Shown in pieces: positions 2,271 to 17,458 of a stretch of DNA of 42,688 bases. The notes under the pieces are model-generated. The model was not told the DNA's origin. It saw only the letters and a program-made list of their open reading frames with translations, and ran no database searches. Numbering within the stretch: the first letter of the stretch is position 1; each line of letters opens with the position of its first letter. The DNA is from Patescibacteria group bacterium (GTDB taxonomy: Bacteria > Patescibacteriota > Minisyncoccia > Phycocordibacterales > VMEP01): positions 1 to 42,688 of the forward strand of contig JBBTVL010000015.1 of NCBI GenBank assembly GCA_038063255.1, written 5' to 3'. Position numbers and translations under genes: made by a program.

Positions 2271-2310
2271 CTTAATCCGCCAGCTGGCGGATGAGGGGTT
2301 TTTGTTTTGC
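2271..2310 (+). terminator. Intrinsic terminator after the SIMPL gene
   Basis: Stem centred on ccgcca-gc-tggcgg (2277-2290), extended by flanking pairs and followed by ggtttttgtttt. Confidence 0.6.
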
Positions 2311-2324
2311 CTGAATATTTTAAA

Positions 2325-2351
2325 CCACTTGGAAACCAGGTTTCCAAGTGG
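2325..2351. promoter_or_regulatory. Perfect 13-1-13 palindrome CCACTTGGAAACC-a-GGTTTCCAAGTGG just upstream of TTGACA boxes (operator candidate)
   Basis: Read directly. TTGACA occurs at 2365-2370 and 2373-2378. A ~40-bp block including TCATAAAATGGC is repeated at 38411-38450 upstream of the TPR gene promoter. Confidence 0.6.
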
Positions 2352-2488
2352 TCATAAAATGGCCTTGACAAGTTGACATTTTTATGTAAGTATTGTAATT
2401 GGATAAACAACCCCAAGGAGAAAAGGGGTTTAGTACCTTAAAACATGTAGTAAGAATTACCCTTTCCAACAACCTTCGAGAGATAACC

Positions 2489-3631
2489 ATGAAAACCGAA
2501 AAAGAAACAAGTACGGGTAGCACCGCGATATCAATCGCTTTCGCGTCTGCAAAGCCGTTTCCCGCCAAAAAGTCGGCATTGCTTTCCGTCAAGGGTGGTG
2601 ACGGGCTCAACTTTCCGACTATCGTCAAGCCGAAGCCCGGTGCCGCCGATGAGTTCCGCGAGCACCGGCAGAAGGTCAGGCAGTTCGCGGGCGACGCGAT
2701 CGATGCGCTCCCCGAGCTCCGCAATTATGTCGCGGAACTCACGGCAATCGAGGGGTGGCAAGAAGACCCGAAGATCGAGGCCGAAGTCAGGTCCGCCAAC
2801 CTCCAGATCGTCGAGATCGAAAAGGTTCCGGCGGTAAGGGACCAGCTGTTGTACAAGATGGTTGAGCTGGCAAAAACCGGCGACGAGTTTCTGGCGGCGC
2901 TTCACTTCGGACAGACCGTTTCAGCCCGCGCCGAAGAGTACCAAGCGGGGCGGGAGCACAAGTACCCGCGTCTTAGGGAAATATCCGGTGAAGATATGAA
3001 GCAGTTCAACGAATCCGCGAGGGTCGAGGGCGGCAGGAGGGACAACAAAAAGTTCTTCCAGTACGCCACAACTTTTCGTGGCGCCGTGTTTCTGTATTTT
3101 GAGCCGGACGGCGGCTTTGGGAACGACACTCCGTTCCAGTCGAAGCTCAAGAAGCTGATTCAGGACCGCAGGGGGCAATTCGTCCAAGCGGAACTGGGTA
3201 CGCTTCAGGAGAAGGATGCCGGCGAAAAGGCCAAGATCGTGGAAATCATGAAAGACCCGCGGTTCAAGCCAATCTCCGTCCTCAAGGATAACATCGCTCC
3301 CGGTCTTTACTGGGCGCACGCGTCGGAGAGGAATTTGGAGGGGAGGTCGCGGCCGGAAGGATTGTCGGTCATTGAGGTGTACGAGAATCCCAGTAACAAC
3401 AGGGGAATCCTGTACTTCAAGGTGAAAGATGCTTACGGCAGCGACCGTGACTTTACCGAACTCATCGGCAAGTGGAGTGCGCCCATAGAAAGGACGCTTC
3501 ACGGCGTCGTGCCCGAACGGGTGCTCGACAAGCTTGACGGGGAAATGGGCGAGAAAGTGAAGAGATTCACCAACATGCTCTACAAGCGGTTCTTCCACGC
3601 CGCTCGCATTCCCCTGCCGGACTCGCGCTAA
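2489..3631 (+). CDS. Hypothetical protein (380 aa), G+C-rich island gene, no domain recognised
   Basis: The ORF-track ORF opens at TTG 2399; I chose the first ATG at 2489 (MKTEKETS...). Long uninterrupted frame followed by strong hairpins. Confidence 0.6.
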   Translation: MKTEKETSTGSTAISIAFASAKPFPAKKSALLSVKGGDGLNFPTIVKPKPGAADEFREHRQKVRQFAGDAIDALPELRNYVAELTAIEGWQEDPKIEAEVRSANLQIVEIEKVPAVRDQLLYKMVELAKTGDEFLAALHFGQTVSARAEEYQAGREHKYPRLREISGEDMKQFNESARVEGGRRDNKKFFQYATTFRGAVFLYFEPDGGFGNDTPFQSKLKKLIQDRRGQFVQAELGTLQEKDAGEKAKIVEIMKDPRFKPISVLKDNIAPGLYWAHASERNLEGRSRPEGLSVIEVYENPSNNRGILYFKVKDAYGSDRDFTELIGKWSAPIERTLHGVVPERVLDKLDGEMGEKVKRFTNMLYKRFFHAARIPLPDSR

Positions 3632-3649
3632 AAACGCGAATGCAGTTTT

Positions 3650-3709
3650 CCGCCGCGGCAAGTAAAACTTGCCGCGGCGGATGAAGGGGGGCTCGTACTC
3701 CCCTTTTTT
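3650..3709 (+). terminator. Double hairpin terminator after the 380-aa gene
   Basis: 13-bp perfect stem ccgccgcggcaag/cttgccgcggcgg (3650-3680), then a gggg...cccc hairpin followed by a T-run (to 3709). Confidence 0.6.
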
Positions 3710-3757
3710 GTTTTTTTCTGCTAGACTCACGCAAGACTTTGAAGAAGGAGGTGTATT

Positions 3758-4270
3758 ATGGCAAAAGGCCATGACAGGTGTCGGCCTCAGCCCGAGAAAC
3801 TTGTACTTCTCTGCGATGGTGGTATCCGTGTTGAGCCATTCAAACAAGGGTATCTGATTGACCTGTCTCGCATCAGAGAAAGAGCGAGCTCCATCGCCCC
3901 GATAGCGTTGTCGTTCATGTTCGATTACCAAGACGGGCTCTATGAGCACCGAATCAGGAATCTCTACGACGAAAACTTCTTTTACATTACCTGTCCGAGA
4001 ATCCAAGAGGCCCAGAAAAATAAAGACAAGACAGACTGGGTTCTTAGCAAGTTCGGGTACATAGCTATTCCTCTCATGCCGGAGATTACCGATGTGGTCA
4101 TAGTTGCGAACGACGGAGACTTTGTTCCGCTTGTATCGCTTCTTAAGGACCACGGGAAGAGAGTAACCCTCTTTTACTACAAGAAACCTGCTGAGGGATA
4201 CTATTCCGTTCTTGGCAAGGAAATGATGTTCGATATCGCTGATTTCGGGCTAACGGCACAGCCGACCTAG
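3758..4270 (+). CDS. NYN/LabA-like (PIN-fold) nuclease-domain protein
   Basis: 170 aa with AGGAGG 6 nt upstream. LVLLCDGG near the N-terminus and VVIVANDGDFVPLVSLLKDHGKRV match the NYN acidic-residue pattern. Confidence 0.65.
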   Translation: MAKGHDRCRPQPEKLVLLCDGGIRVEPFKQGYLIDLSRIRERASSIAPIALSFMFDYQDGLYEHRIRNLYDENFFYITCPRIQEAQKNKDKTDWVLSKFGYIAIPLMPEITDVVIVANDGDFVPLVSLLKDHGKRVTLFYYKKPAEGYYSVLGKEMMFDIADFGLTAQPT

Positions 4271-4290
4271 CCGACCGTGGTTGTATTGCT

Positions 4291-4319
4291 GGCCCGTGAT
4301 GAAAGTCGCGGGCCTTTTT
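4291..4319 (+). terminator. Intrinsic terminator after the NYN gene
   Basis: ggcccg (4291-4296) pairs with cgggcc (4309-4314), followed by ttttt. Confidence 0.6.
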
Positions 4320-7339: not shown

Positions 7340-7951
7340 ATGATTAACAAGGGAATATTTGGTCCTAGCGTTGAGCTAAAGGACCGCCTAAAAACGCTGG
7401 AAGAAATCGGTTCCTTAGCAGAACATTGCAGGGGGCTTGGCCTTAGAGTTTCGATGACCCAGGGAAGTTGGGATTTGTACCACGATGCCCACAAGAAGTA
7501 TCTTGCCAAGGCGCGTTCGTTTGGCGATCTCCTTATCGTGGGGGTCGACTCGGATGAGAAGATTCGTCACCGAAAAGGAAAAGACAGGCCGATGGTTCCT
7601 CAAGGAGAACGACTTGATCTTCTGGCGGGAAACCGCAGCGTCGACGTGGTGGTGCTCAAGGAGCTTAACCACGAGAAGTGGGCCCTCATCAAGGCGGTAC
7701 GGCCAGATGTTCTTATCGTTTCGGAGACGACGAGGAAAAATAAACCGATTCCGCAAGAGGAGATAGACGAGATTAAGCAGTATTGCGGTGAGATCGTCGT
7801 TCTTCCGGCCCAGGGGGAAACGACAACAAGCGCGCGTGTTGCCCACTTTACTCTCAATATTGGTAGACAAATAAAGAAAGCGCTCGAAGATTCGATTCCA
7901 GGAATCATAGAACGTGTCACAGGCCCTCTCGGCGAAGGGGAGGAAAGATGA
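7340..7951 (+). CDS. Cytidylyltransferase-family nucleotidyltransferase, HldE/RfaE domain-II-like
   Basis: GGAGG 7 nt upstream of ATG 7340. Has the GSWDLYHDAH (GxxDxxHxxH) signature, GDLLIVGVDSD, RPMVPQGER..LL and a C-terminal TTTS. The stop overlaps the next start (ATGA). Confidence 0.7.
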   Translation: MINKGIFGPSVELKDRLKTLEEIGSLAEHCRGLGLRVSMTQGSWDLYHDAHKKYLAKARSFGDLLIVGVDSDEKIRHRKGKDRPMVPQGERLDLLAGNRSVDVVVLKELNHEKWALIKAVRPDVLIVSETTRKNKPIPQEEIDEIKQYCGEIVVLPAQGETTTSARVAHFTLNIGRQIKKALEDSIPGIIERVTGPLGEGEER

Positions 7952-8817
7952 AAATCTTAATTCTGTACATGCCAGTGCTCCACAAGGGCTACCTTGATCT
8001 CTTCGACCGCGTGAAGCCGGAAGTAATCGCGCTTCTCACGGAAGAAGTGCTTCGGGATCTGCCTGAAGGACTCTCCTACATCGCTAAGAAGGATTCGATT
8101 CGTGCAGTGCCTTCCAAAGAGATGTGGGTGGCGGTTTCATCGTTGTTTTCTTCGCAAGAAGTCACTGTAATGCGCGCTACGGTTGCCGATATTTCCTCGC
8201 TTGGTGGAAATTCTCATCAGATACTCATGCCCGACGAGGACGTCAGTCTGTCGGTGGCGGAGAAGTATTTCGGTGTAGGAAGGGTAACATTTGTCACCCC
8301 GCCGTCACGACTTCGCTATCACCGGAATAACGTCGAGGAAAAGAAACTTCTGGTGCCCGACCGCCGTCTCCCGCTCAGTAATCTTGACCGAGAAATGATG
8401 GCCATTGTGGGCAAAGCTTCCGAGCGGAGTCCGGACTGGTGGCGGCAGGTGGGCGGCGTGCTCGTTACCCCGGATGGCCGCAGTATCGTCGCCTACAACG
8501 AGCATCAGCCGCACGAACAGATCGCGGCAACTCTCGGCGATCCGCGCAGCATTTTCAAAAGCGGGGTGCGAACGGATCTTTCAAATGCCGAGCACGTGGA
8601 GCGCATAGTCATTGGCGAAGCCGCGCGGCAGAAGATCGGAACCGACAACTCGATTTTGTACCTCACGACGTTCCCATGTCTTCCGTGCGCCCATCTTATG
8701 GCTCGCGCTGGCGTAAAACGCCTTTTCTACCGCGACCCATCGTATGGACTTCTCGACGCCGACGAGTTCCTTCGTGGCAAGGAAATAGAGCTCATCGAAG
8801 TCTCTGATGGAACATGA
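7948..8817 (+). CDS. Fusion protein: unknown ~140-aa N-domain plus dCMP/cytidine-deaminase-fold domain
   Basis: C-terminal half has the zinc motifs HVE (in NAEHVERIVIGEA) and PCLPC, plus VGGVLV..DG..V..NE. The N-terminal half was not recognised. Confidence 0.7.
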   Translation: MKILILYMPVLHKGYLDLFDRVKPEVIALLTEEVLRDLPEGLSYIAKKDSIRAVPSKEMWVAVSSLFSSQEVTVMRATVADISSLGGNSHQILMPDEDVSLSVAEKYFGVGRVTFVTPPSRLRYHRNNVEEKKLLVPDRRLPLSNLDREMMAIVGKASERSPDWWRQVGGVLVTPDGRSIVAYNEHQPHEQIAATLGDPRSIFKSGVRTDLSNAEHVERIVIGEAARQKIGTDNSILYLTTFPCLPCAHLMARAGVKRLFYRDPSYGLLDADEFLRGKEIELIEVSDGT

Positions 8818-8887
8818 TTCAAGCGGCCTTAGCGGGTCGCTTTTTTTTGCATAAAAAAATCCCCCGGTTGGTTTCCGGGAGATGAAT

Positions 8888-9352
8888 CTATTTCGCTTTG
8901 TAGCCGAGCTTGACGCGGAGTGCTTCACCTTCTTTCCCGCCGCCGAAAATGAGTTGGGCATGGAAGTGGGAGATGGAAGCACCAGTGAAGTCGGTGTCGC
9001 CGAAGCGGAAGAAGAATCCGCCCGCAGGCAACCTATACTCTTCAATAGCCCATTCGATGAGCACCCCGAGGTCCTGCCATGCTTCCGGTGGTAAGTTGGG
9101 AAAGAGCACATGTCTTTCTTCGTCGAAGAATTTACTGACTATGAGGAAGTGCTTTTCAGCCCCCTCATATTTCGGGAAGCTTTCAGTGAAAGCCCAGTGC
9201 TCGGTTTCCTTGATGACGGGGTTGGGGTGATAGGTCGGCGACTTCCCTTGGCAAAAGTCAACGCAGAAGGAACACACCCTATCTCCCTGTATCCGCTCGT
9301 ACAACCTTCGCTGCTCTTCCGTGCGCGCATGGCGCATGTTCACTTCTGGCAT
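8888..9352 (-). CDS. HIT-superfamily protein, GalT/Apa branch (HxHxQ) single-repeat
   Basis: 154 aa with ISHFHAQLIF (H-x-H-x-Q rather than HxHxH) and an N-terminal CSFC. AAGGAGG lies 4 nt upstream and overlaps the stop of the upstream TS-fold gene. Confidence 0.6.
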   Translation of the reverse strand: MPEVNMRHARTEEQRRLYERIQGDRVCSFCVDFCQGKSPTYHPNPVIKETEHWAFTESFPKYEGAEKHFLIVSKFFDEERHVLFPNLPPEAWQDLGVLIEWAIEEYRLPAGGFFFRFGDTDFTGASISHFHAQLIFGGGKEGEALRVKLGYKAK

Positions 9353-9361
9353 AGCGCCTCC

Positions 9362-10276
9362 TTATGGGCTGACCGGAATGTCTTTTATTGCCGGATACGG
9401 ATGGTAATTCGCGACCTCAAAGTGCTCCTTGCGGAACGCGAAGAAGTCATCCGGCGGGTTTTTGAGCGTCACGGTCGGGAATGGCCGCGGCTCGCGAGAG
9501 ATTATTTCTTCAAGCACTCCCCTTTGGTTCTCGTAGTAATGAGCGTTGAGATATACGATGCTCATCTTTCCTGGTTCGTACCCAAGGACATGACAAAACG
9601 CGAGCCAAAATGCGGAAAACATCAGTCGATCGTGCGCTTCTCCGACGACCATGTCGGCTGAGCGCATCACCATCTCGAGATGAAGTTTCCCATCGAGGAC
9701 GAAGATGTTGATCACCGTGCCCCAACAGGGGACTGTCACCACCATTTGACGCTTGCCTTTCCCTCGGAAAATTCCCGGAGGGTAGAGCGTGGTCATAGTG
9801 TGGGTTTTCAAATGGGGCAGTTCCCGAACTTGGTCGATGACAGCCTGGATCTGGTTGAACATCGTTCCATCATGGGCGGGGAAGTCATGCAGGACTACGT
9901 AGCTCGCCGGCCCTAGATCTCCCTGCGCCAGACCGCGCTTTTCGCACTTCCTCGGATCCTCGAACGTTGAGTTCCAGAATGGGACTTGCCAGTCCCGATT
10001 GAGTTCGTTGTTCATCCGCACGCCATTAGCGAGCGCGAACCCTTCATTGATGCTCGCCTTGCCGATTTGCCGGCAGGTTTCCATGGGGCAACCGTTCTTG
10101 ATGTCATAGACATGCGAAATGGCGAATGGCAGACTGTACGTCGCCCGTTCGGTTTCCCCGGCTTTCTTGCTTTGCTGGGTTTCCGAACGGATGCCTTCGC
10201 GAAGAAGGCGTATGCACAGACTGCGAAATTGCATATCTGGCACCCGTTCTTTATACATCAAGTATGCAATGTTCAT
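9362..10276 (-). CDS. Thymidylate-synthase-fold enzyme, divergent (deoxycytidylate hydroxymethylase/methylase-like)
   Basis: 304 aa. GDLGP, VPCW (nucleophile Cys), DGKLHLEMVMRSADMVVG, NAHYY and ISREPRPFP align by eye with ThyA. Asp sits at the ThyA Asn177 position. Confidence 0.75.
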   Translation of the reverse strand: MNIAYLMYKERVPDMQFRSLCIRLLREGIRSETQQSKKAGETERATYSLPFAISHVYDIKNGCPMETCRQIGKASINEGFALANGVRMNNELNRDWQVPFWNSTFEDPRKCEKRGLAQGDLGPASYVVLHDFPAHDGTMFNQIQAVIDQVRELPHLKTHTMTTLYPPGIFRGKGKRQMVVTVPCWGTVINIFVLDGKLHLEMVMRSADMVVGEAHDRLMFSAFWLAFCHVLGYEPGKMSIVYLNAHYYENQRGVLEEIISREPRPFPTVTLKNPPDDFFAFRKEHFEVANYHPYPAIKDIPVSP

Positions 10277-11913: not shown

Positions 11914-12068
11914 AGTGTGTGCAGGTGAACCCGCATAAATACCCCATAGGACTCTCCTATGGGGCTCCTAATGAGGGTGTTTTACTTTCTTTAATTGACT
12001 TTTACCAGGGTTGACATAATGTTCTCAGTTTGAGAGTCTTTCGGTAGATGGCTCCTAAGGAGGAATTT

Positions 12069-12422
12069 ATGCAACAAACCATTAATCCGAATAATGTAAT
12101 CGTTTTCGGCTCCGCGTCTGTTGTCATCAACCTGCTGTTTCTCGCCCTTGCCGTCCGTGGCGAGCTGAAGGGTAAAACTCCCCAAGAGATACTCCAGCAA
12201 CAAACACCCCGCTGTGTTTCAGCTTTTCTGGGGTTGCTCGTCGCGTGCTATGCATACGCCTACGCCCCGCTCCTTTTTGCGATACACCCTCCGATTGCAA
12301 TTGAATTCGGCCGTTGGGTCATTGGGCTTGCGACTGGCGCAATCGTAACATGTAGTGCGCTCTACCTATTCCATCTTGGCGGTTACTTCAAGGAGTTACT
12401 AAGACGGTCTTTCCTCCGGTAG
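12069..12422 (+). CDS. Hypothetical small membrane protein (G+C-rich patch)
   Basis: AAGGAGG 5 nt upstream of ATG 12069. About 3-4 hydrophobic segments. A terminator-like hairpin follows. Confidence 0.5.
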   Translation: MQQTINPNNVIVFGSASVVINLLFLALAVRGELKGKTPQEILQQQTPRCVSAFLGLLVACYAYAYAPLLFAIHPPIAIEFGRWVIGLATGAIVTCSALYLFHLGGYFKELLRRSFLR

Positions 12423-12585
12423 AGCGATTCAAAGAATTTGCTGGACGGTGATTTTTTCGCAATATAGCGCTGTGCCCGATGTGGTACGGCGCTTTTTCCT
12501 TGTATTTCGAAAAATAGAGTGCTACACTCTCTTTCATCTGGAATGGGTCCAGATTTTTTATTTCCAAAAACAGTTCTTTCAGGGG

Positions 12586-12960
12586 ATGAAATTGACAAAA
12601 GCCACAGAAGTGAAAAAGCCTCTCTCTGAAGAGGCCATCAGGCAGGTTCGTTCAGCCCTCACTCTTCCGGAACATGTTCGCGAGATGGTAGAGGACAGCG
12701 AAATCCATCTTTTTGCCGAGTCCCTCTGGCATTGGTGGCAGCATATGAAGACATTCAATCGGTACATGGTTTCCATATGCGACAAGTACTGGCACCCCGC
12801 GCCAATTCCGGTGGCGGAGTGTCCGGAAAAACTTTTGCTCTGGGTCGTGCGCCAGCTCGGGCAAGGGCGGAAGATTGTCGCTGTCGGCCACAAAAACAAG
12901 ACGGTGGAGGCCAGAATCTTCGAGTGGTTTTCCTACTTCGCTCCCGTCCCCGCCGTCTAG
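12586..12960 (+). CDS. Hypothetical protein (124 aa, G+C-rich patch)
   Basis: First ATG in the ORF-track ORF 12448-12960. The upstream part overlaps the previous gene's terminator. Trp-rich, no domain recognised. Confidence 0.45.
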   Translation: MKLTKATEVKKPLSEEAIRQVRSALTLPEHVREMVEDSEIHLFAESLWHWWQHMKTFNRYMVSICDKYWHPAPIPVAECPEKLLLWVVRQLGQGRKIVAVGHKNKTVEARIFEWFSYFAPVPAV

Positions 12961-13046
12961 AACGGTCCGTCCGCGCAAGCGGACGCAAAATCGCTCCGTG
13001 CTTCTGTACTTGGGCGGTTTTTTTATTTAATAAGTGCGTCTGTATT

Positions 13047-13154
13047 AATTTACCCGCCTAAATTTGTGTAATTTTTAGTAGAGCGATTAGAAAAATTTTG
13101 TGTGGTAAACTCAATACATTACTCGATTTCTAGTAAAAATTTAGGTGGGTAAAT
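13047..13154 (+). repeat. Long imperfect hairpin element upstream of the ileS leader
   Basis: atttacccgcctaaattt (13047-13064) pairs with aaatttaggtgggtaaat (13137-13154), 17/18. Confidence 0.5.
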
Positions 13155-13163
13155 AGTATGAAT

Positions 13164-13286
13164 CCCGTTAGAAGCCGCGGTCACGGTTTAAATAGGAGCT
13201 TAAAACAATTATGAATCACGATCGTGTTATTATTTACAAAAATAACTTTGCAAGGCGCGGGCTGACCGCGACCTGCTTCTAACGGG
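13164..13286 (+). repeat. Start-codon-abutting leader hairpin (ileS copy)
   Basis: CCCGTTAGAAGC (13164-13175) pairs with GCTTCTAACGGG (13275-13286), with a second helix CGCGGTC/GACCGCG. ATG at 13287. Confidence 0.7.
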
Positions 13287-16200
13287 ATGAAACTAGAGGA
13301 AGAAATACTAAAATTTTGGCAAGAAAAGGGGATATTCAAAAAAACTTTAACTGAAAGGGCTTCCGGTAAAAAATTCGTATTTTACGACGGACCGCCCTTT
13401 GCTACCGGACTCCCTCATTACGGGCATATTTTGGCCGGAACTATCAAGGATGTCATTCCGCGCTATCAAACCATGCGCGGGCGATTTGTGCGCCGAGAGT
13501 GGGGCTGGGATTGTCATGGGCTTCCGCTTGAAAATATTATTGAAGAAGAACTAGGGCTCAAGCATAAGAAAGATATAGAAAAATTCGGCATTGAGAATTT
13601 TAATGATGCCGCCTCGCGCGCAGTACTTCGTTATGAAAATGACTGGAAAAAAATAATTCCTAAAACCGGGCGTTTCGTGGATATGGAGAATCCCTACAAA
13701 ACAATGGACGCCACATACACGGAATCCGTCTGGTGGTCCTTCAAAACTCTTTATGACAAAGGGCTGATATACGAAGGGCATAAAATAATGCTGGTGTGTC
13801 CGCGCTGTGAGACCACTCTTGCTCAGAGTGAAGTCGCTTTGGGCGGGTACCACGATGTTACTGATATTTCGGTGATAGTGAAATTTGAACTTATTGATGA
13901 GCCAGGAACATTTCTTTTGGCGTGGACGACGACACCGTGGACATTGCCTGGGAACACAGCCCTTGCGGTAAACAAGAATGTTGAATATGTAAAAGTCAGT
14001 ATCAAAAATTATCAGAATGTTCCTGATGGAATATATATATTTTCTAAAAAAGATTACGAAGATTATAAAAAAGAAATTGACAACGAAAAAAATAGAGAGA
14101 TAAAAACAAAGGTTGATATTTTAAAAACTTTCAAGGGAAGCGAACTTGTTGGTAAATCTTATATTCCTCCGTTTGATTATTTTTATAAAGATGAAAAAAT
14201 AAAAAATCACAAAAACGGATGGAAAGTTTATCATGCTGATTTTGTTACGACGGAAACCGGAACCGGAATCGCCCATGAGGCGCCGGCCTTCGGCGAAGAC
14301 GATATGCAACTCGCGCTCAAAAACAACATTCCCATTGTTCAGCATGTAGGAATGGATGGCAAAATGAAAAACGAAGTCAAAGATTTTCGCGGTTTATATG
14401 TAAAACAAAAGGGCGATACTCAGTCAACCGACATTGAAATTGTAAAATATCTCGCCCAAAAAGAACTTCTCTTTGCCAAAGAAAAAGTGGTGCACCCATA
14501 TCCTCTCTGCTGGCGCTGCGACACGCCGCTTTTAAACTATGCAACAAATTCATGGTTTGTTAAAGTAACGGATTTTAAGGACAAGCTGATAAGAGAAAAC
14601 AAAAAAATCGTCTGGGTGCCAGCGCACATGCGAGATGGCCGTTTCGGTAAATGGCTCGAAGCGGCCAAGGATTGGGCGATTTCGCGAACTCGTTTTTGGG
14701 GCGCACCCCTTCCGGTCTGGCGCTGTGAAAAATGTAAAAAAATTGAAATTATTGGAAGTTTAGGTGAACTTCAGAAATCAATACCTAAAAGCGGAAATAA
14801 ATATTTTGTTATGCGACATGGGCAAGCTGAGAGCAATATTTCTGGTACTAACGATTCCACAGGCAACCCGAATAATCATCTAACCGAGAATGGGCGAGAA
14901 AGTATACGGCGTTTTGCTAAAGAATTTTCTAAAAAAGGGATAACTCGTATTATGACTTCACCGTTCGCTCGTGCTAAGGAAAGCGCAGAAGTTATCGCAC
15001 ACGAACTTGGACTCCCGGAACAAAATATCTTGTCCGACCAACGATTGATTGAATTTAATCACGGCTCCGACCGTCAGGGTAAAAAAATAAGTAACAATAA
15101 TCCAGAACCATTTAATGAAAATGATCTTTATATTCGCCATGATGACGGTGAGAGCCACGCAGAGGTTAGATCACGGGTAGTTTCGGTGATATTTGATATG
15201 GAAAAAACCTATAAAAATGAGACGATACTTATTGTTACCCATGGTTCTCCAATGTGGATGCTTATCACCGGGGCTTTAGGTATGAGTGACAAGGAAACAA
15301 TAAAATATCAGGAAGAACGCAAAAAAGACAATGGGGACTATTTTATTTCAAACGGCCAGATTGAGAAAATTGACTTTGTCCCGTTTCCCCATAACAAAGA
15401 GTACGAACTTGATTTTCACCGCCCGTATATAGACGAAGTGAAGCTATCTTGCACTTGCGGTGGAGAGATGGAGCGCATCAAAGATGTCTTTGACTGCTGG
15501 TTTGAATCTGGCTCCATGCCCTACGGGCAATTTCATTATCCTTTTGAGAACAAAAAAGTTTTTAAAGAAAATTTTCCCGCCGATTTCATCGCCGAAGGAC
15601 TGGATCAAACCCGCGGATGGTTTTACAGCATGATGGTACTTGGCGTTGCGCTTTTCGGCGAGACGCCGTTTAAGAATGTTATCGTGAATGGCCTTATTTT
15701 GGGCGAAGACGGCCAGAAGATGGCCAAAAAACTTAAGAATTATCCGGATGTGACGGAGTTGATTGAAAAATACGGCGCTGATGCGCTCCGTTATTATTTT
15801 CTCTCGTTACCGGTAATGCGCGGAGAAGACATTGCTTTCTCGGAAAAGGGAATTAGTGATGTCTATAAGAAGATTATATTACGGCTCCTTAATGTCTATA
15901 GTTTCTACAAAATGTATGCCCATGAACTTCGTTTTGAGGACTCGTTCAAGAAGAGCAAAAATGTACTGGACCAATGGATATTGTCGCGCCTTTCAGAATT
16001 ATCTATAGAGATGACGCGCGGAATGGATGCTTACGAGCTTGATGTTGCTGTGCGCGGAATTGAAAAATTTGTTGACGATTTTTCCACCTGGTACTTGCGC
16101 CGCTCCAGAGAAAGAGTGAAGGGAGATGATAAAGAGGACAAAGAAATGTCACTTTCGACCATCCGTTTTGTCCTTTTTGAATTTTCCAAATTAATCGCTC

Positions 16201-16808
16201 CCGCAATGCCGTTTGTTGCGGAAGATATTTATCAGAAAGTGAAAGGATTAAAAGATAAAGAAAGCGTGCATCTTGAAGCTTGGCCCGAAGCGGGGAAGAT
16301 TGATAAAAAAAATATCGCCAAAATGGAAACAACCAGGTGTCTTGTTGAGCTTGCCCTCGCCCTTCGCGCGGAGAAAGGAATAAAAGTGCGTCAGCCACTT
16401 GCCATTTTGGAAGTAAGCAAAGAGGAAGGTGAATTTTTTGAAGAACTAATTAGAGACGAGGTTAATGTTAAAAAAATCTTTGTGGGAGCATTTTCCAAGG
16501 GGGCGGTGACACTGGACACAAATATTACACCCGAACTCAAGGAAGAAGGACAGTTTCGCGACCTAACGCGAGCAATCCAAGAATTGCGTAAAAAAGAAAA
16601 ACTTACGCATCATGATGTCGTTTCATTTGTAATTGATACCGATACAAGGGGGCGGGAATTAATTTCAAAATTTGAAGTACAATTAAAAAAGGCGGTATCG
16701 GCGGACAAAATTGTGTTTGAAAAAAATAACGGCGAAGAAATATTGATTAACGATACTATTTTAAAAGTTTCGCTAAAAAATCCCATTAGAAGTTCAGAAA
16801 AATTATAG
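13287..16808 (+). CDS. ileS: Isoleucine--tRNA ligase with an internal histidine-phosphatase-like insertion
   Basis: 1173 aa with PHYGH (HIGH), an editing-domain region, WAISRTRFWGAPLPVW, CxxC pairs, FHRPYIDEV and KMAKKLKN (KMSKS-like). Confidence 0.9.
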   Translation: MKLEEEILKFWQEKGIFKKTLTERASGKKFVFYDGPPFATGLPHYGHILAGTIKDVIPRYQTMRGRFVRREWGWDCHGLPLENIIEEELGLKHKKDIEKFGIENFNDAASRAVLRYENDWKKIIPKTGRFVDMENPYKTMDATYTESVWWSFKTLYDKGLIYEGHKIMLVCPRCETTLAQSEVALGGYHDVTDISVIVKFELIDEPGTFLLAWTTTPWTLPGNTALAVNKNVEYVKVSIKNYQNVPDGIYIFSKKDYEDYKKEIDNEKNREIKTKVDILKTFKGSELVGKSYIPPFDYFYKDEKIKNHKNGWKVYHADFVTTETGTGIAHEAPAFGEDDMQLALKNNIPIVQHVGMDGKMKNEVKDFRGLYVKQKGDTQSTDIEIVKYLAQKELLFAKEKVVHPYPLCWRCDTPLLNYATNSWFVKVTDFKDKLIRENKKIVWVPAHMRDGRFGKWLEAAKDWAISRTRFWGAPLPVWRCEKCKKIEIIGSLGELQKSIPKSGNKYFVMRHGQAESNISGTNDSTGNPNNHLTENGRESIRRFAKEFSKKGITRIMTSPFARAKESAEVIAHELGLPEQNILSDQRLIEFNHGSDRQGKKISNNNPEPFNENDLYIRHDDGESHAEVRSRVVSVIFDMEKTYKNETILIVTHGSPMWMLITGALGMSDKETIKYQEERKKDNGDYFISNGQIEKIDFVPFPHNKEYELDFHRPYIDEVKLSCTCGGEMERIKDVFDCWFESGSMPYGQFHYPFENKKVFKENFPADFIAEGLDQTRGWFYSMMVLGVALFGETPFKNVIVNGLILGEDGQKMAKKLKNYPDVTELIEKYGADALRYYFLSLPVMRGEDIAFSEKGISDVYKKIILRLLNVYSFYKMYAHELRFEDSFKKSKNVLDQWILSRLSELSIEMTRGMDAYELDVAVRGIEKFVDDFSTWYLRRSRERVKGDDKEDKEMSLSTIRFVLFEFSKLIAPAMPFVAEDIYQKVKGLKDKESVHLEAWPEAGKIDKKNIAKMETTRCLVELALALRAEKGIKVRQPLAILEVSKEEGEFFEELIRDEVNVKKIFVGAFSKGAVTLDTNITPELKEEGQFRDLTRAIQELRKKEKLTHHDVVSFVIDTDTRGRELISKFEVQLKKAVSADKIVFEKNNGEEILINDTILKVSLKNPIRSSEKL
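14799..15390 (+). other. Histidine-phosphatase (PGAM-superfamily) domain inserted in frame in IleRS (about residues 505-700)
   Basis: YFVMRHGQAESN (RHG), TSPFARAKESAEVIA (SPxxRAxxTA-like) and LIVTHGSPM (second His). It lies between ...CEKCKKIEIIGSLGEL and DFHRPYIDEV. Confidence 0.7.
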
Positions 16809-16861: not shown

Positions 16862-17458
16862 ATGATTATGCAAAAAACTTCTAACAGGACAAGAAAACGA
16901 GTATTCATAATCCATGGGTGGGAAGCTAGTTCTAGTTCAGACTGGTTCCCTTGGCTCAAGAAGGAATTAGAAAACCGGGGATTCGAAGTTACCGTTCCCG
17001 ATATGCCAGATACCGAGCGTCCTAATAAAGAGGTATGGATAACATATCTAGCTTCTCTCATCGGAGCACCAGACGAGCAGACTTATTTGGTAGGACATAG
17101 TATCGGGGGGAATACGGTATTGAGATATCTGGAATCATTGGATAATAAAAAGATCGGTGGGGCAGTACTTGTCGCTCCTTATTTCGGGAAAGTGGTGCTC
17201 GAATCTGGAGAAGCAAAAAAGATTGCGGACCCATGGCTCAATACGCCGATTGATTTTTCAAGAATCAAAAATGTTTGTAGTAATCTCACTTTTATTTTCT
17301 CGGATAACGATGAGTGGGTACCGCTTGAAAATAAAGAATTTTTCAAGGAGAAACTTTCCCCAAAGATTATTATTGAGAGAGGCAAAGGACATTTTAACGA
17401 AGAGGATGATATTGCTGAACTCCCTTCTGCGCTTGAAGCGTTACTTTCTTTTTCATAA
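16862..17458 (+). CDS. Alpha/beta serine hydrolase (YdeN/RBBP9-like)
   Basis: 198 aa with VFIIHGW, nucleophile elbow GHSIGG and a C-terminal GHF. Confidence 0.65.
   Translation: MIMQKTSNRTRKRVFIIHGWEASSSSDWFPWLKKELENRGFEVTVPDMPDTERPNKEVWITYLASLIGAPDEQTYLVGHSIGGNTVLRYLESLDNKKIGGAVLVAPYFGKVVLESGEAKKIADPWLNTPIDFSRIKNVCSNLTFIFSDNDEWVPLENKEFFKEKLSPKIIIERGKGHFNEEDDIAELPSALEALLSFS

Follow-up and report, generated by a model that had tools for sequence, protein, structure and literature searches.

Why should an aminoacyl-tRNA synthetase carry a second enzyme within its own chain? The question is raised by a stretch of 42,688 nucleotides from a Patescibacteria group bacterium (contig JBBTVL010000015.1 of assembly GCA_038063255.1; the whole stretch analysed is hereafter the window), in which the ileS gene (13287..16808, forward strand) encodes an isoleucyl-tRNA synthetase (IleRS) of 1173 residues with a histidine phosphatase nested inside it. 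The gene is one open frame without interruption, as a sequence-only reading of the same DNA had stated, and it is assigned as a complete type-2 (eukaryote-like) ileS on the basis of the open reading frame (ORF), the TIGR00392 model, sequence matches in the PDB, and AlphaFold2 (AF2) modelling combined with Foldseek. The nested phosphatase is no peculiarity of one genome; it is a lineage-wide trait of Patescibacteria, mostly of the Paceibacterota/Parcubacteria (all named sources).

The inserted segment belongs, by sequence and predicted fold, to the histidine-phosphatase superfamily. Pfam places a His_Phos_1 (PF00300) match at residues 507–671 (E=2.7e-30, 105.9 bits against a cutoff of 21.7), and the PhoE/PspA-like domain as a whole is delimited to residues 502–703 (14790..15395, forward strand) by Pfam, AF2, Foldseek and a profile search of PDB sequences in which PhoE was matched at 1e-29. 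Modelled alone from a 41-sequence alignment, the insert gave a predicted local distance difference test score (pLDDT) of 93.6 and a predicted template modelling score (pTM) of 0.91, and comparison of this model with the PDB by Foldseek returned 4ij5/4ij6, 1h2e, 4qih, 9mmh and 6nru with a probability of 1.00, template modelling (TM) scores of 0.69–0.75 and a root-mean-square deviation (rmsd) of ∼3 Å. The closest structures are small-molecule phosphatases, namely PspA (4ij5/4ij6), PhoE (1h2e/1ebb), glucosyl-3-phosphoglycerate phosphatase (GpgP), the riboflavin-pathway HFP and CobC, whereas structures of cofactor-dependent phosphoglycerate mutase (dPGM) superpose less well (rmsd 6–8 Å). A cap region is present, and only the cap loop at residues 603–614, which is particular to the window protein, is disordered in the full-length model. 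The sequence-only reading had recognised a phosphoglycerate mutase-like histidine phosphatase at 14799–15390; these positions correspond to residues 505–701 and thus to the insert, and all the motifs that it quoted lie where it had placed them.

Conservation of the predicted active site was examined in two sets: a diverse set of 41 sequences (A5), and the loci of the best 80 of 306 relatives, which together with the window make 81 loci, the relatives being covered to ±6 kb around the gene. The RHG motif (residues 510–512; 14814..14822, forward strand, as are all the following positions unless stated) holds R510 and the nucleophile H511, both invariant in A5. R510, H511 and G512 are found in 81/81 loci, but RHG was part of the search pattern there; in the unbiased A5 set G512 is at least 90% conserved. 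The second phosphate-pocket arginine, R562 (14970..14972, within SPFARAKES), and the second active-site histidine, H652 (15240..15242, within VTHGS), are present in all 81 loci and invariant in A5. E589 (15051..15053), the putative general acid, is found in 79/81 loci and at least 90% of A5, and it aligns with the glutamate of the PhoE motif EIHLGDWEGK. N517, G536 and S558 likewise occur in 81/81 loci and E622 (GES, residues 621–623) in 79/80. This pattern is maintained even though the inserts of the 81 loci are only ∼35–40% identical to that of the window. By sequence and model, the insert has the full His_Phos fold with the full catalytic set (R510, H511, N517, R562, E589 and H652), and it is probably an active phosphatase, complete and catalytically intact in appearance.

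Assignment to a characterised orthologous group was less successful. The score for SixA (TIGR00249) was 38.5 bits against a cutoff of 74.5, that for CobC (TIGR03162) 70.5 against 162.9, and that for PspA (NF045917) 65 against 350. A glycolytic dPGM can be rejected on similar grounds (NF038349, archaeal dPGM, 82 against 225; TIGR01258, 20.8 against 81.7), in addition to its poorer structural superposition. As the insert falls below every NCBIfam equivalog cutoff, no substrate can be transferred to it by homology. An intein or other self-excising mobile insertion was also rejected, since residues 502–703 give only His_Phos_1 in Pfam and a His_Phos fold, with no HINT or homing-endonuclease domain; the conserved ...PHN at the C-terminal junction resembles an intein end only superficially.

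The position of the phosphatase within the synthetase can be defined closely. In an alignment to Priestia megaterium IleRS2 (8c8v) the match breaks at query residue 498 (chain residue 477) and resumes at query residue 704 (chain residue 482), so that ∼205 residues in the window IleRS stand in place of ∼4; this agrees with the proposal of the sequence-only reading that the domain replaces a short linker between the GSLGEL and DFHRPYID segments. On either side of the break lie two cysteine pairs, CEKC (residues 480–483; 14724..14735) and CTC (residues 722–724; 15450..15458), which are conserved in at least 90% of the close clade (C480 and C483 in the first pair). They match the CxxC...CxC zinc knuckle of Thermus thermophilus IleRS, in which the third connective peptide (CP3) bears a zinc-binding motif (PMC7191050). 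Query residue 497 is aligned opposite residue 490 of the yeast enzyme and residue 497 of the Candida albicans enzyme, and the published limits of CP3 are 459–526 and 473–534, respectively (PMC7191050, PMC7955072). Because the break lies between CEKC and CTC, and residue 497 falls inside the published CP3, we place the phosphatase at the tip of the CP3 zinc knuckle. The tether at its N-terminal side is only ∼6 residues long. In yeast, the CP2–CP3 linker (ARDWNVSRNRYWG) lines the tRNA 3'-end/reveromycin pocket (PMC7955072), and its counterpart in the window IleRS, residues 460–472, lies ∼30 residues upstream of the insert. CP3 itself has direct connections to the Rossmann fold (its second half) and, at the active-site cleft, to the CP2–CP3 linker (PMC7191050, PMC7955072).

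The synthetase that surrounds the phosphatase looks functional. The TIGR00392 model (isoleucine–tRNA ligase, NCBIfam) scores 863.5 bits against the 1173-residue protein, above the curated equivalog cutoff of 621.4, and the PF00133 (tRNA-synt_1) match is broken in two stretches that flank the His_Phos_1 match. In a search of PDB sequences, type-2 and eukaryote-like IleRS structures came out on top (P. megaterium IleRS2 8c8v, T. thermophilus 1ile, yeast and human; E∼1e-200 to 1e-220), with 8c8v and 1ile as the best matches at E∼1e-220, while type-1 structures (8c9e, 1ffy) were weaker (∼1e-81 to 1e-84). The protein carries an anticodon-binding helical domain (residues 895–1040; 15969..16406; Pfam Anticodon_1, E=1.7e-31) followed by the type-2 C-terminal domain DUF5915 (residues 1073–1164; 16503..16778; E=1.1e-14). 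The higher scores of the IleRS2 and eukaryotic structures, the presence of DUF5915 and the same ranking by Foldseek together assign the window IleRS to type 2 and not type 1. The full-length AF2 model (pLDDT 90.2, pTM 0.85) superposes on IleRS2 structures with target-normalised Foldseek TM-scores of 0.81–0.90, from which we conclude that the synthetase body is intact. As in the known type-2 enzymes, which are insensitive to mupirocin (8C8V, 1ILE, yeast 8WND, 7D5C), the Rossmann fold, CP core, CP1 editing, CP2, CP3, anticodon-binding and type-2 C-terminal domains follow one another in the same order; unlike them, the window protein has a whole enzyme domain of ∼205 residues where they have ∼4, and its KMSKS signature is altered.

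The signature motifs agree with this, with one qualification. The HIGH signature, HYGH (residues 44–47; 13416..13427), has H44, G46 and H47 invariant in 119 relatives, as is the Thr-rich motif of the CP1 editing domain, WTTTPWT (residues 213–219; 13923..13943); the GTG..H.AP.FG.DD motif is also conserved and WFESG is found at residues 738–742. The KMSKS-loop signature reads KMAKK (residues 811–815; 15717..15731), with both lysines retained and the serine replaced by alanine, a rare variant that the window protein shares with only two other relatives (3/119 close relatives, as compared with serine in 116/119). The earlier statement that the flanking synthetase motifs are intact therefore holds for HIGH and the zinc cysteine pairs, but not strictly for KMSKS. 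By its sequence features the window protein is a complete and, as predicted from these motifs, editing-competent type-2 IleRS.

Joining of an IleRS to an unrelated phosphatase by chimeric assembly, a frameshift or a mis-called gene was considered as an alternative to a genuine fusion. One genome for each of 185,579 species was scanned with exact peptide patterns such as KYFVMRHG; after confirmation with tblastn, relatives of the insert were found in at least 306 species-level genomes, a number that is a lower bound. The best 80 of these 306 are all from Patescibacteria metagenome-assembled genomes, and include Nomura-, Campbell-, Adler-, Niyogi-, Yonath-, Vogel-, Taga- and Zambryskibacteria, RAAC4_OD1_1 and others labelled Paceibacterota/Parcubacteria. 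Some 30 of these genomes bear the unconfirmed label "uncultured Candidatus Saccharibacteria", although their IleRS and gene order look Paceibacteria-like. When the whole window protein was compared with these loci by tblastn, IleRS sequence was found on both sides of the insert and in the same frame in 80/80, in 77 by a single high-scoring segment pair. In the loci L062, L070 and L073 the IleRS frame breaks only in the C-terminal part, after the cassette, owing to sequencing or assembly errors or to pseudogenisation.

A word-indexed homologue search with the insert returned three matches only, and so badly underestimated the family. An index-free search with a hidden Markov model (HMM) over 1.84 billion cluster representatives found 283 clusters (50% identity) at E≤1e-30. 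Among the best 150 of these 283, 108 hold the N-terminal flank, the cassette and the C-terminal flank, 31 are end-truncated versions of the same arrangement, four are cassette-only proteins (≤220 residues) and seven have more than one cassette. PF00133 and PF00300 occur together in 120/120 of the best full-length homologues, and the best homologues include Lloydbacteria (66% identity), Yonathbacteria and GW2011 Parcubacteria entries already in UniRef. The window protein was found identically on three contigs (P0154), and the GC content of the insert (0.398) is close to that of the rest of the gene (0.413). With the same in-frame architecture in 80/80 loci and in 120/120 homologues that come from many studies and assemblers, a uniform GC content and the protein recovered on three contigs, the probability of an artefact is negligible.

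The identities of the phosphatase and of the IleRS body are discordant. Across 7021 pairwise comparisons the insert is typically (median) 22 percentage points below the IleRS body in identity, with strong outliers in both directions. The window protein and P0163 share 65% identity in the body and 84% in the insert; the window protein and P0158 share 83% in the body and 32% in the insert; and for P0200 and P0252 the values are 89% and 37%. At the DNA level, comparison of the window with L001 (the locus of P0163) shows an insert that is 83.5% identical, with a non-synonymous divergence (dN) of 0.09, a synonymous divergence (dS) of 0.74 and dN/dS ∼0.12, while the body, in its N-terminal, catalytic and anticodon-binding regions, is 62–66% identical and saturated in dS. 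Nucleotide identity is 0.77–0.90 within a block at residues ∼500–716 (14784..15434) and 0.48–0.70 directly outside it. This block, which comprises the phosphatase and its junctions, has sharp edges at residues ∼500 and ∼716, exactly at the conserved junctions KSGNKYFVMRHG and DFVPFPHN.EYELDFHRPYID, and the zinc-knuckle segments beside it are unrelated, with CEKC/CTC in the window and none in L001. More than one cassette type (<55% identity) occurs in 7/21 multi-member body clusters (≥80% identity); five cassette types are each shared by several such clusters of bodies. The simplest reading of these sequence comparisons is that the cassette has been replaced between lineages by recombination through its conserved junctions.

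The phosphatase domain is, as judged from the aligned sequences, under purifying selection, since its catalytic residues are invariant despite ∼35–40% insert identity and dN/dS is ∼0.12. This bears on the possibility that the domain is a catalytically irrelevant expansion, which does no more than stabilise the CP3 zinc knuckle, take its place or offer a surface for protein interaction. The CEKC/CTC cysteines are missing from many more distant fused IleRS (for example P0001 and L001), so the insert might compensate for them structurally; the close clade, however, retains the zinc cysteines together with the insert. Moreover, R510, H511, N517, R562 and H652 are invariant and E589 is retained in 79/81 loci at an overall identity of ∼35%, which together with the low dN/dS makes a purely structural role highly improbable.

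Further evidence that the domain behaves as a module comes from its copy number and location. P0108 and P0103 have, in addition to a cassette in CP3, a second one immediately in front of the anticodon-binding domain; P0110 has its two after the WFESG region and before the anticodon domain, and P0118 carries two in tandem within CP3. At least four cassettes are present in P0006, and P0135 is also a multi-cassette protein; the loops used across the multi-copy IleRS include those before CP2/CP3. Copies within one protein are only ∼35% identical to each other, and all keep the R-H...H set except the last copy of P0006, which is C-terminally cut (the parent protein ends after 1161 residues). Free-standing relatives also exist. 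P0002 (L081:239-859) is a genuine one, a protein of 206 residues whose gene starts at a GTG of its own, is preceded by non-coding DNA and has genes for DUF6884 and SecY as neighbours. P0002 and P0056 (205–206 residues, free-standing) are closest to the window-type cassette group (40–46% identity), and their ends are junction-like as in the IleRS cassette (KNTY...RHG at the start and ...NVPPELHD at the end). These two may either have donated the cassette or be escaped copies of it.

These observations can be set against a regulatory role, in which the domain would bind, or be transiently phosphorylated by, a phosphometabolite such as a glycolytic intermediate or a nucleotide and so tune IleRS allosterically through CP3. 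The contact of CP3 with the second half of the Rossmann fold and the CP2–CP3 linker at the active-site cleft (PMC7191050, PMC7955072) would offer a route for such a signal, and the tight tether and the confident full-length model are in keeping with it. However, the whole catalytic machinery is conserved, including the general acid that is needed for turnover and not for mere binding, the swapping of cassettes between diverged bodies speaks against co-adaptation at an allosteric interface, and variants with several copies or alternative sites fit poorly. A sensor of this kind is therefore very unlikely in our estimate.

We propose instead that the protein is bifunctional, a type-2 IleRS with a structurally autonomous PhoE/PspA-like phosphatase at the tip of its CP3 zinc knuckle. 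The phosphatase would work independently through a phospho-histidine intermediate at H511, probably on a small soluble phosphomonoester, and would be merely tethered to the synthetase, not integrated with its aminoacylation or editing sites, with IleRS acting as an essential and constitutively expressed carrier. The module would be swapped among IleRS genes by recombination at the junctions, occasionally be duplicated into other surface loops, and also exist as a free-standing gene. Autonomy is suggested because an 84%-identical cassette serves 65%-identical bodies, while near-identical bodies host cassettes of 32–37% identity, and because insertion sites and copy number vary and a free-standing form exists. 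The sequence-only reading had suggested, as possible roles, action on tRNA 2'/3'-phosphate ends, on adenylate or Ap4A by-products or on a regulatory nucleotide; cassette exchange, variable sites and copy number, and free-standing relatives argue for an autonomous module and against geometric coupling to the synthetic site. No conserved basic surface was found on the insert (median pI 6.1, net charge −3), which gives no support for RNA binding, and since the nearest structures are capped small-molecule phosphatases, a substrate of the small-molecule type is probable. Based on these sequence and structural-model considerations, we give an autonomous phosphomonoesterase, tethered to IleRS without mechanistic coupling, about an even chance of being correct.

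Several points weigh against this proposal. The domain is restricted to IleRS; the arginyl-tRNA synthetase (ArgRS), methionyl-tRNA synthetase (MetRS) and class II synthetase encoded in the same window are without an insert. This restriction, together with the addition of further copies to IleRS itself, suggests a functional tie that a pure carrier model leaves unexplained. The ∼6-residue tether and the pTM of 0.85 for the full-length model imply that the orientation of the domain may be fixed, in which case it could face the tRNA 3'-end channel. In addition, fast evolution and turnover of the cassette are unusual for a housekeeping metabolic phosphatase.

Such a tie would follow if the phosphatase were a guard or repair module working in cis, which removes phosphate from a component of the IleRS reaction and thereby restores charging. 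Candidate targets are the acceptor end of tRNA(Ile) bearing a 2'/3'-phosphate or pyrophosphate, of the kind that nucleases leave behind or toxSAS-type toxins add, and a phosphorylated residue of IleRS itself, for example the KMSKS serine. In GluRS and TrpRS the KMSKS serine is the site attacked by the HipA/HipT kinases. That the domain occurs only in IleRS and has been added to IleRS repeatedly is in line with this explanation, as is the faster evolution of the insert relative to the body (median identity 22 points lower) with its cassette turnover, which conflict would predict. The CP3 location, ∼30 residues past the CP2–CP3 linker that lines the tRNA 3'-end pocket (PMC7955072), and the short N-terminal tether are also in its favour. 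On the other hand, cassettes function in very different bodies and loops, which speaks against any fixed orientation relative to the acceptor end or the KMSKS loop, and the closest folds are those of capped small-molecule phosphatases and not that of SixA, a protein phosphatase without a cap. The absence of a conserved basic surface, the existence of a free-standing form and the absence of a kinase or toxin from the conserved neighbourhood count against it as well. PADLOC models gave no match to the cassette or to the free-standing P0002 at E≤0.01, which counts against a defence role, and the peptide-pattern scan of viral contigs found no cassette relative, which counts against a phage origin and likewise against a guard. 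On balance we consider a guard or repair module unlikely.

A more specific form of this idea is that the phosphatase is a built-in countermeasure, which would sustain isoleucine charging when a competitor, host or phage attacks it by phosphorylation. An inhibitory phosphate or pyrophosphate would be removed from the acceptor end of tRNA(Ile), or from IleRS itself (for example at the KMSKS serine). We judge this form to be distinctly improbable. Were it true, the sequence turnover, the horizontal replacement of cassettes and the presence of 2 to 4+ copies would be the footprint of an arms race, and this would be the first case of a repair or immunity function, based on a phosphatase, built into an aminoacyl-tRNA synthetase.

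Some precedents exist for parts of this architecture. PhoE/YhfR (1H2E, 1EBB) and PspA (4IJ5), of branch 1 of the superfamily, resemble the insert in fold, length (∼200 residues), cap region and catalytic residues, and the insert motif E-I-x-x-G-x-F-D-G-K is akin to E-I-H-L-G-D-W-E-G-K of PhoE; they are free-standing, whereas the phosphatase of the window is nested within another enzyme. The RNase H/acid phosphatase fusions (PRK07238; Rv2228c/SCO2299 type), the second-best NCBIfam match of the insert (81 bits against a cutoff of 326), also join a His_Phos_1 domain to an enzyme that acts on nucleic acid, but end to end and not nested, with another partner and in another phylum. The biological reason for the RNase H/acid phosphatase fusion is also unclear. 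In eukaryotic tRNA-related machinery, the yeast TFIIIC subunit tau55 has a His_Phos domain that is N-terminal and not nested, and its physiological substrate is unresolved. The NCBIfam exception model NF040702 ('ileS_w_GNAT') offers a curation-level precedent for a foreign catalytic domain nested in IleRS, although with another fold and at another site, in the editing-domain region and not in CP3. Both types of insertion are found in the Patescibacteria IleRS P0202, with a nested GNAT domain at residues 285–415 in the editing-domain region and a His_Phos cassette at residues 664–827 in CP3. The counterpart of this GNAT site in the window protein (residues ∼221–280) is the least conserved part of the body. 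The window protein itself was rejected as a member of NF040702 (282 against a cutoff of 1999; no acetyltransferase by Pfam).

The sequence-only reading knew of no described synthetase with an embedded phosphatase, allowing that the insertion might turn out to be a known and widespread feature of IleRS. It is widespread, in at least 306 genomes and ∼283 clusters, and it appears to be undescribed: full-text literature searches found no paper that links IleRS or any synthetase to a histidine phosphatase or phosphoglycerate mutase domain, or that discusses such a fusion in the candidate phyla radiation (CPR)/Patescibacteria. In a 2026 preprint on IleRS domain evolution the words phosphatase, CPR and Patescibacteria are absent. 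Some fused IleRS have been in public databases since 2013–2015, and the architecture has been picked up by automatic Pfam annotation. The fusion thus appears to be not new as sequence but undescribed as a biological feature, with both of its parts drawn from well-known families. In many records a fused IleRS goes by no better name than "class I tRNA ligase family protein" or "hypothetical protein", and one is called "GNAT family N-acetyltransferase"; with such vague names, IleRS or phosphatase activity can be counted wrongly when metabolism is reconstructed.

Few enzymes have been studied as closely as the synthetases, and work on the domain evolution of IleRS is active. The presence of an entire catalytic domain within CP3 throughout a large bacterial lineage, in some members with 2 to 4+ copies, widens the known range of domains inserted in or appended to synthetases. 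It is also unusual for an essential gene to evolve in such a way that its diverged copies swap an internal domain like a cassette. The nested phosphatase provides an experimental handle on the link between phosphate chemistry and translation in CPR bacteria, whose minimal genomes presumably retain mostly meaningful domains. The tolerance of CP3 to an insertion of 200 residues may further be useful for the engineering of split or switchable synthetases.

The genomic setting of ileS is that of housekeeping genes. The order ArgRS–IleRS–RecO–DUF11 protein–GlyRS (glycyl-tRNA synthetase) is kept in 38–51 of the 81 loci, and the neighbour clusters comprise ArgRS, RecO, the DUF11 protein, GlyRS and dUTPase-like, SHMT-like, HAD-like and thymidylate-kinase-like proteins; neither a kinase nor a toxin was found in the conserved neighbourhood of ileS (81 loci, ±6 kb of the relatives). 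No tRNA or other structured RNA was found in the 42-kb window, and the remainder of it is ordinary chromosome, with genes for thymidylate synthase, dCMP deaminase, MetRS, TatD, RecA and FtsK. A Ser_hydrolase/alpha-beta hydrolase gene (198 residues; 16862–17458) lies directly downstream of ileS, before recO, and is found near ileS in only 9/81 loci. The spacer between ArgRS and IleRS (12001–13286) has a GC content of 0.507 against ∼0.40 on either side, and holds two ORFs, 12048–12422 (124 residues, hydrophobic) and 12448–12960 (170 residues), both without a Pfam or PADLOC match; ArgRS directly adjoins IleRS in many related loci. Two further regions of the window are GC-rich. At 2300–4300 (0.51–0.54), two ORFs of 410 residues, 2399–3631 on the forward strand and 2921–4153 on the reverse strand, overlap almost wholly and neither has a Pfam match. 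The other, at 8001–10000 (0.54–0.55 against ∼0.40–0.45 elsewhere), spans the dCMP-deaminase-like gene (7948–8817) and the thymidylate synthase gene (9362–10276, reverse strand).

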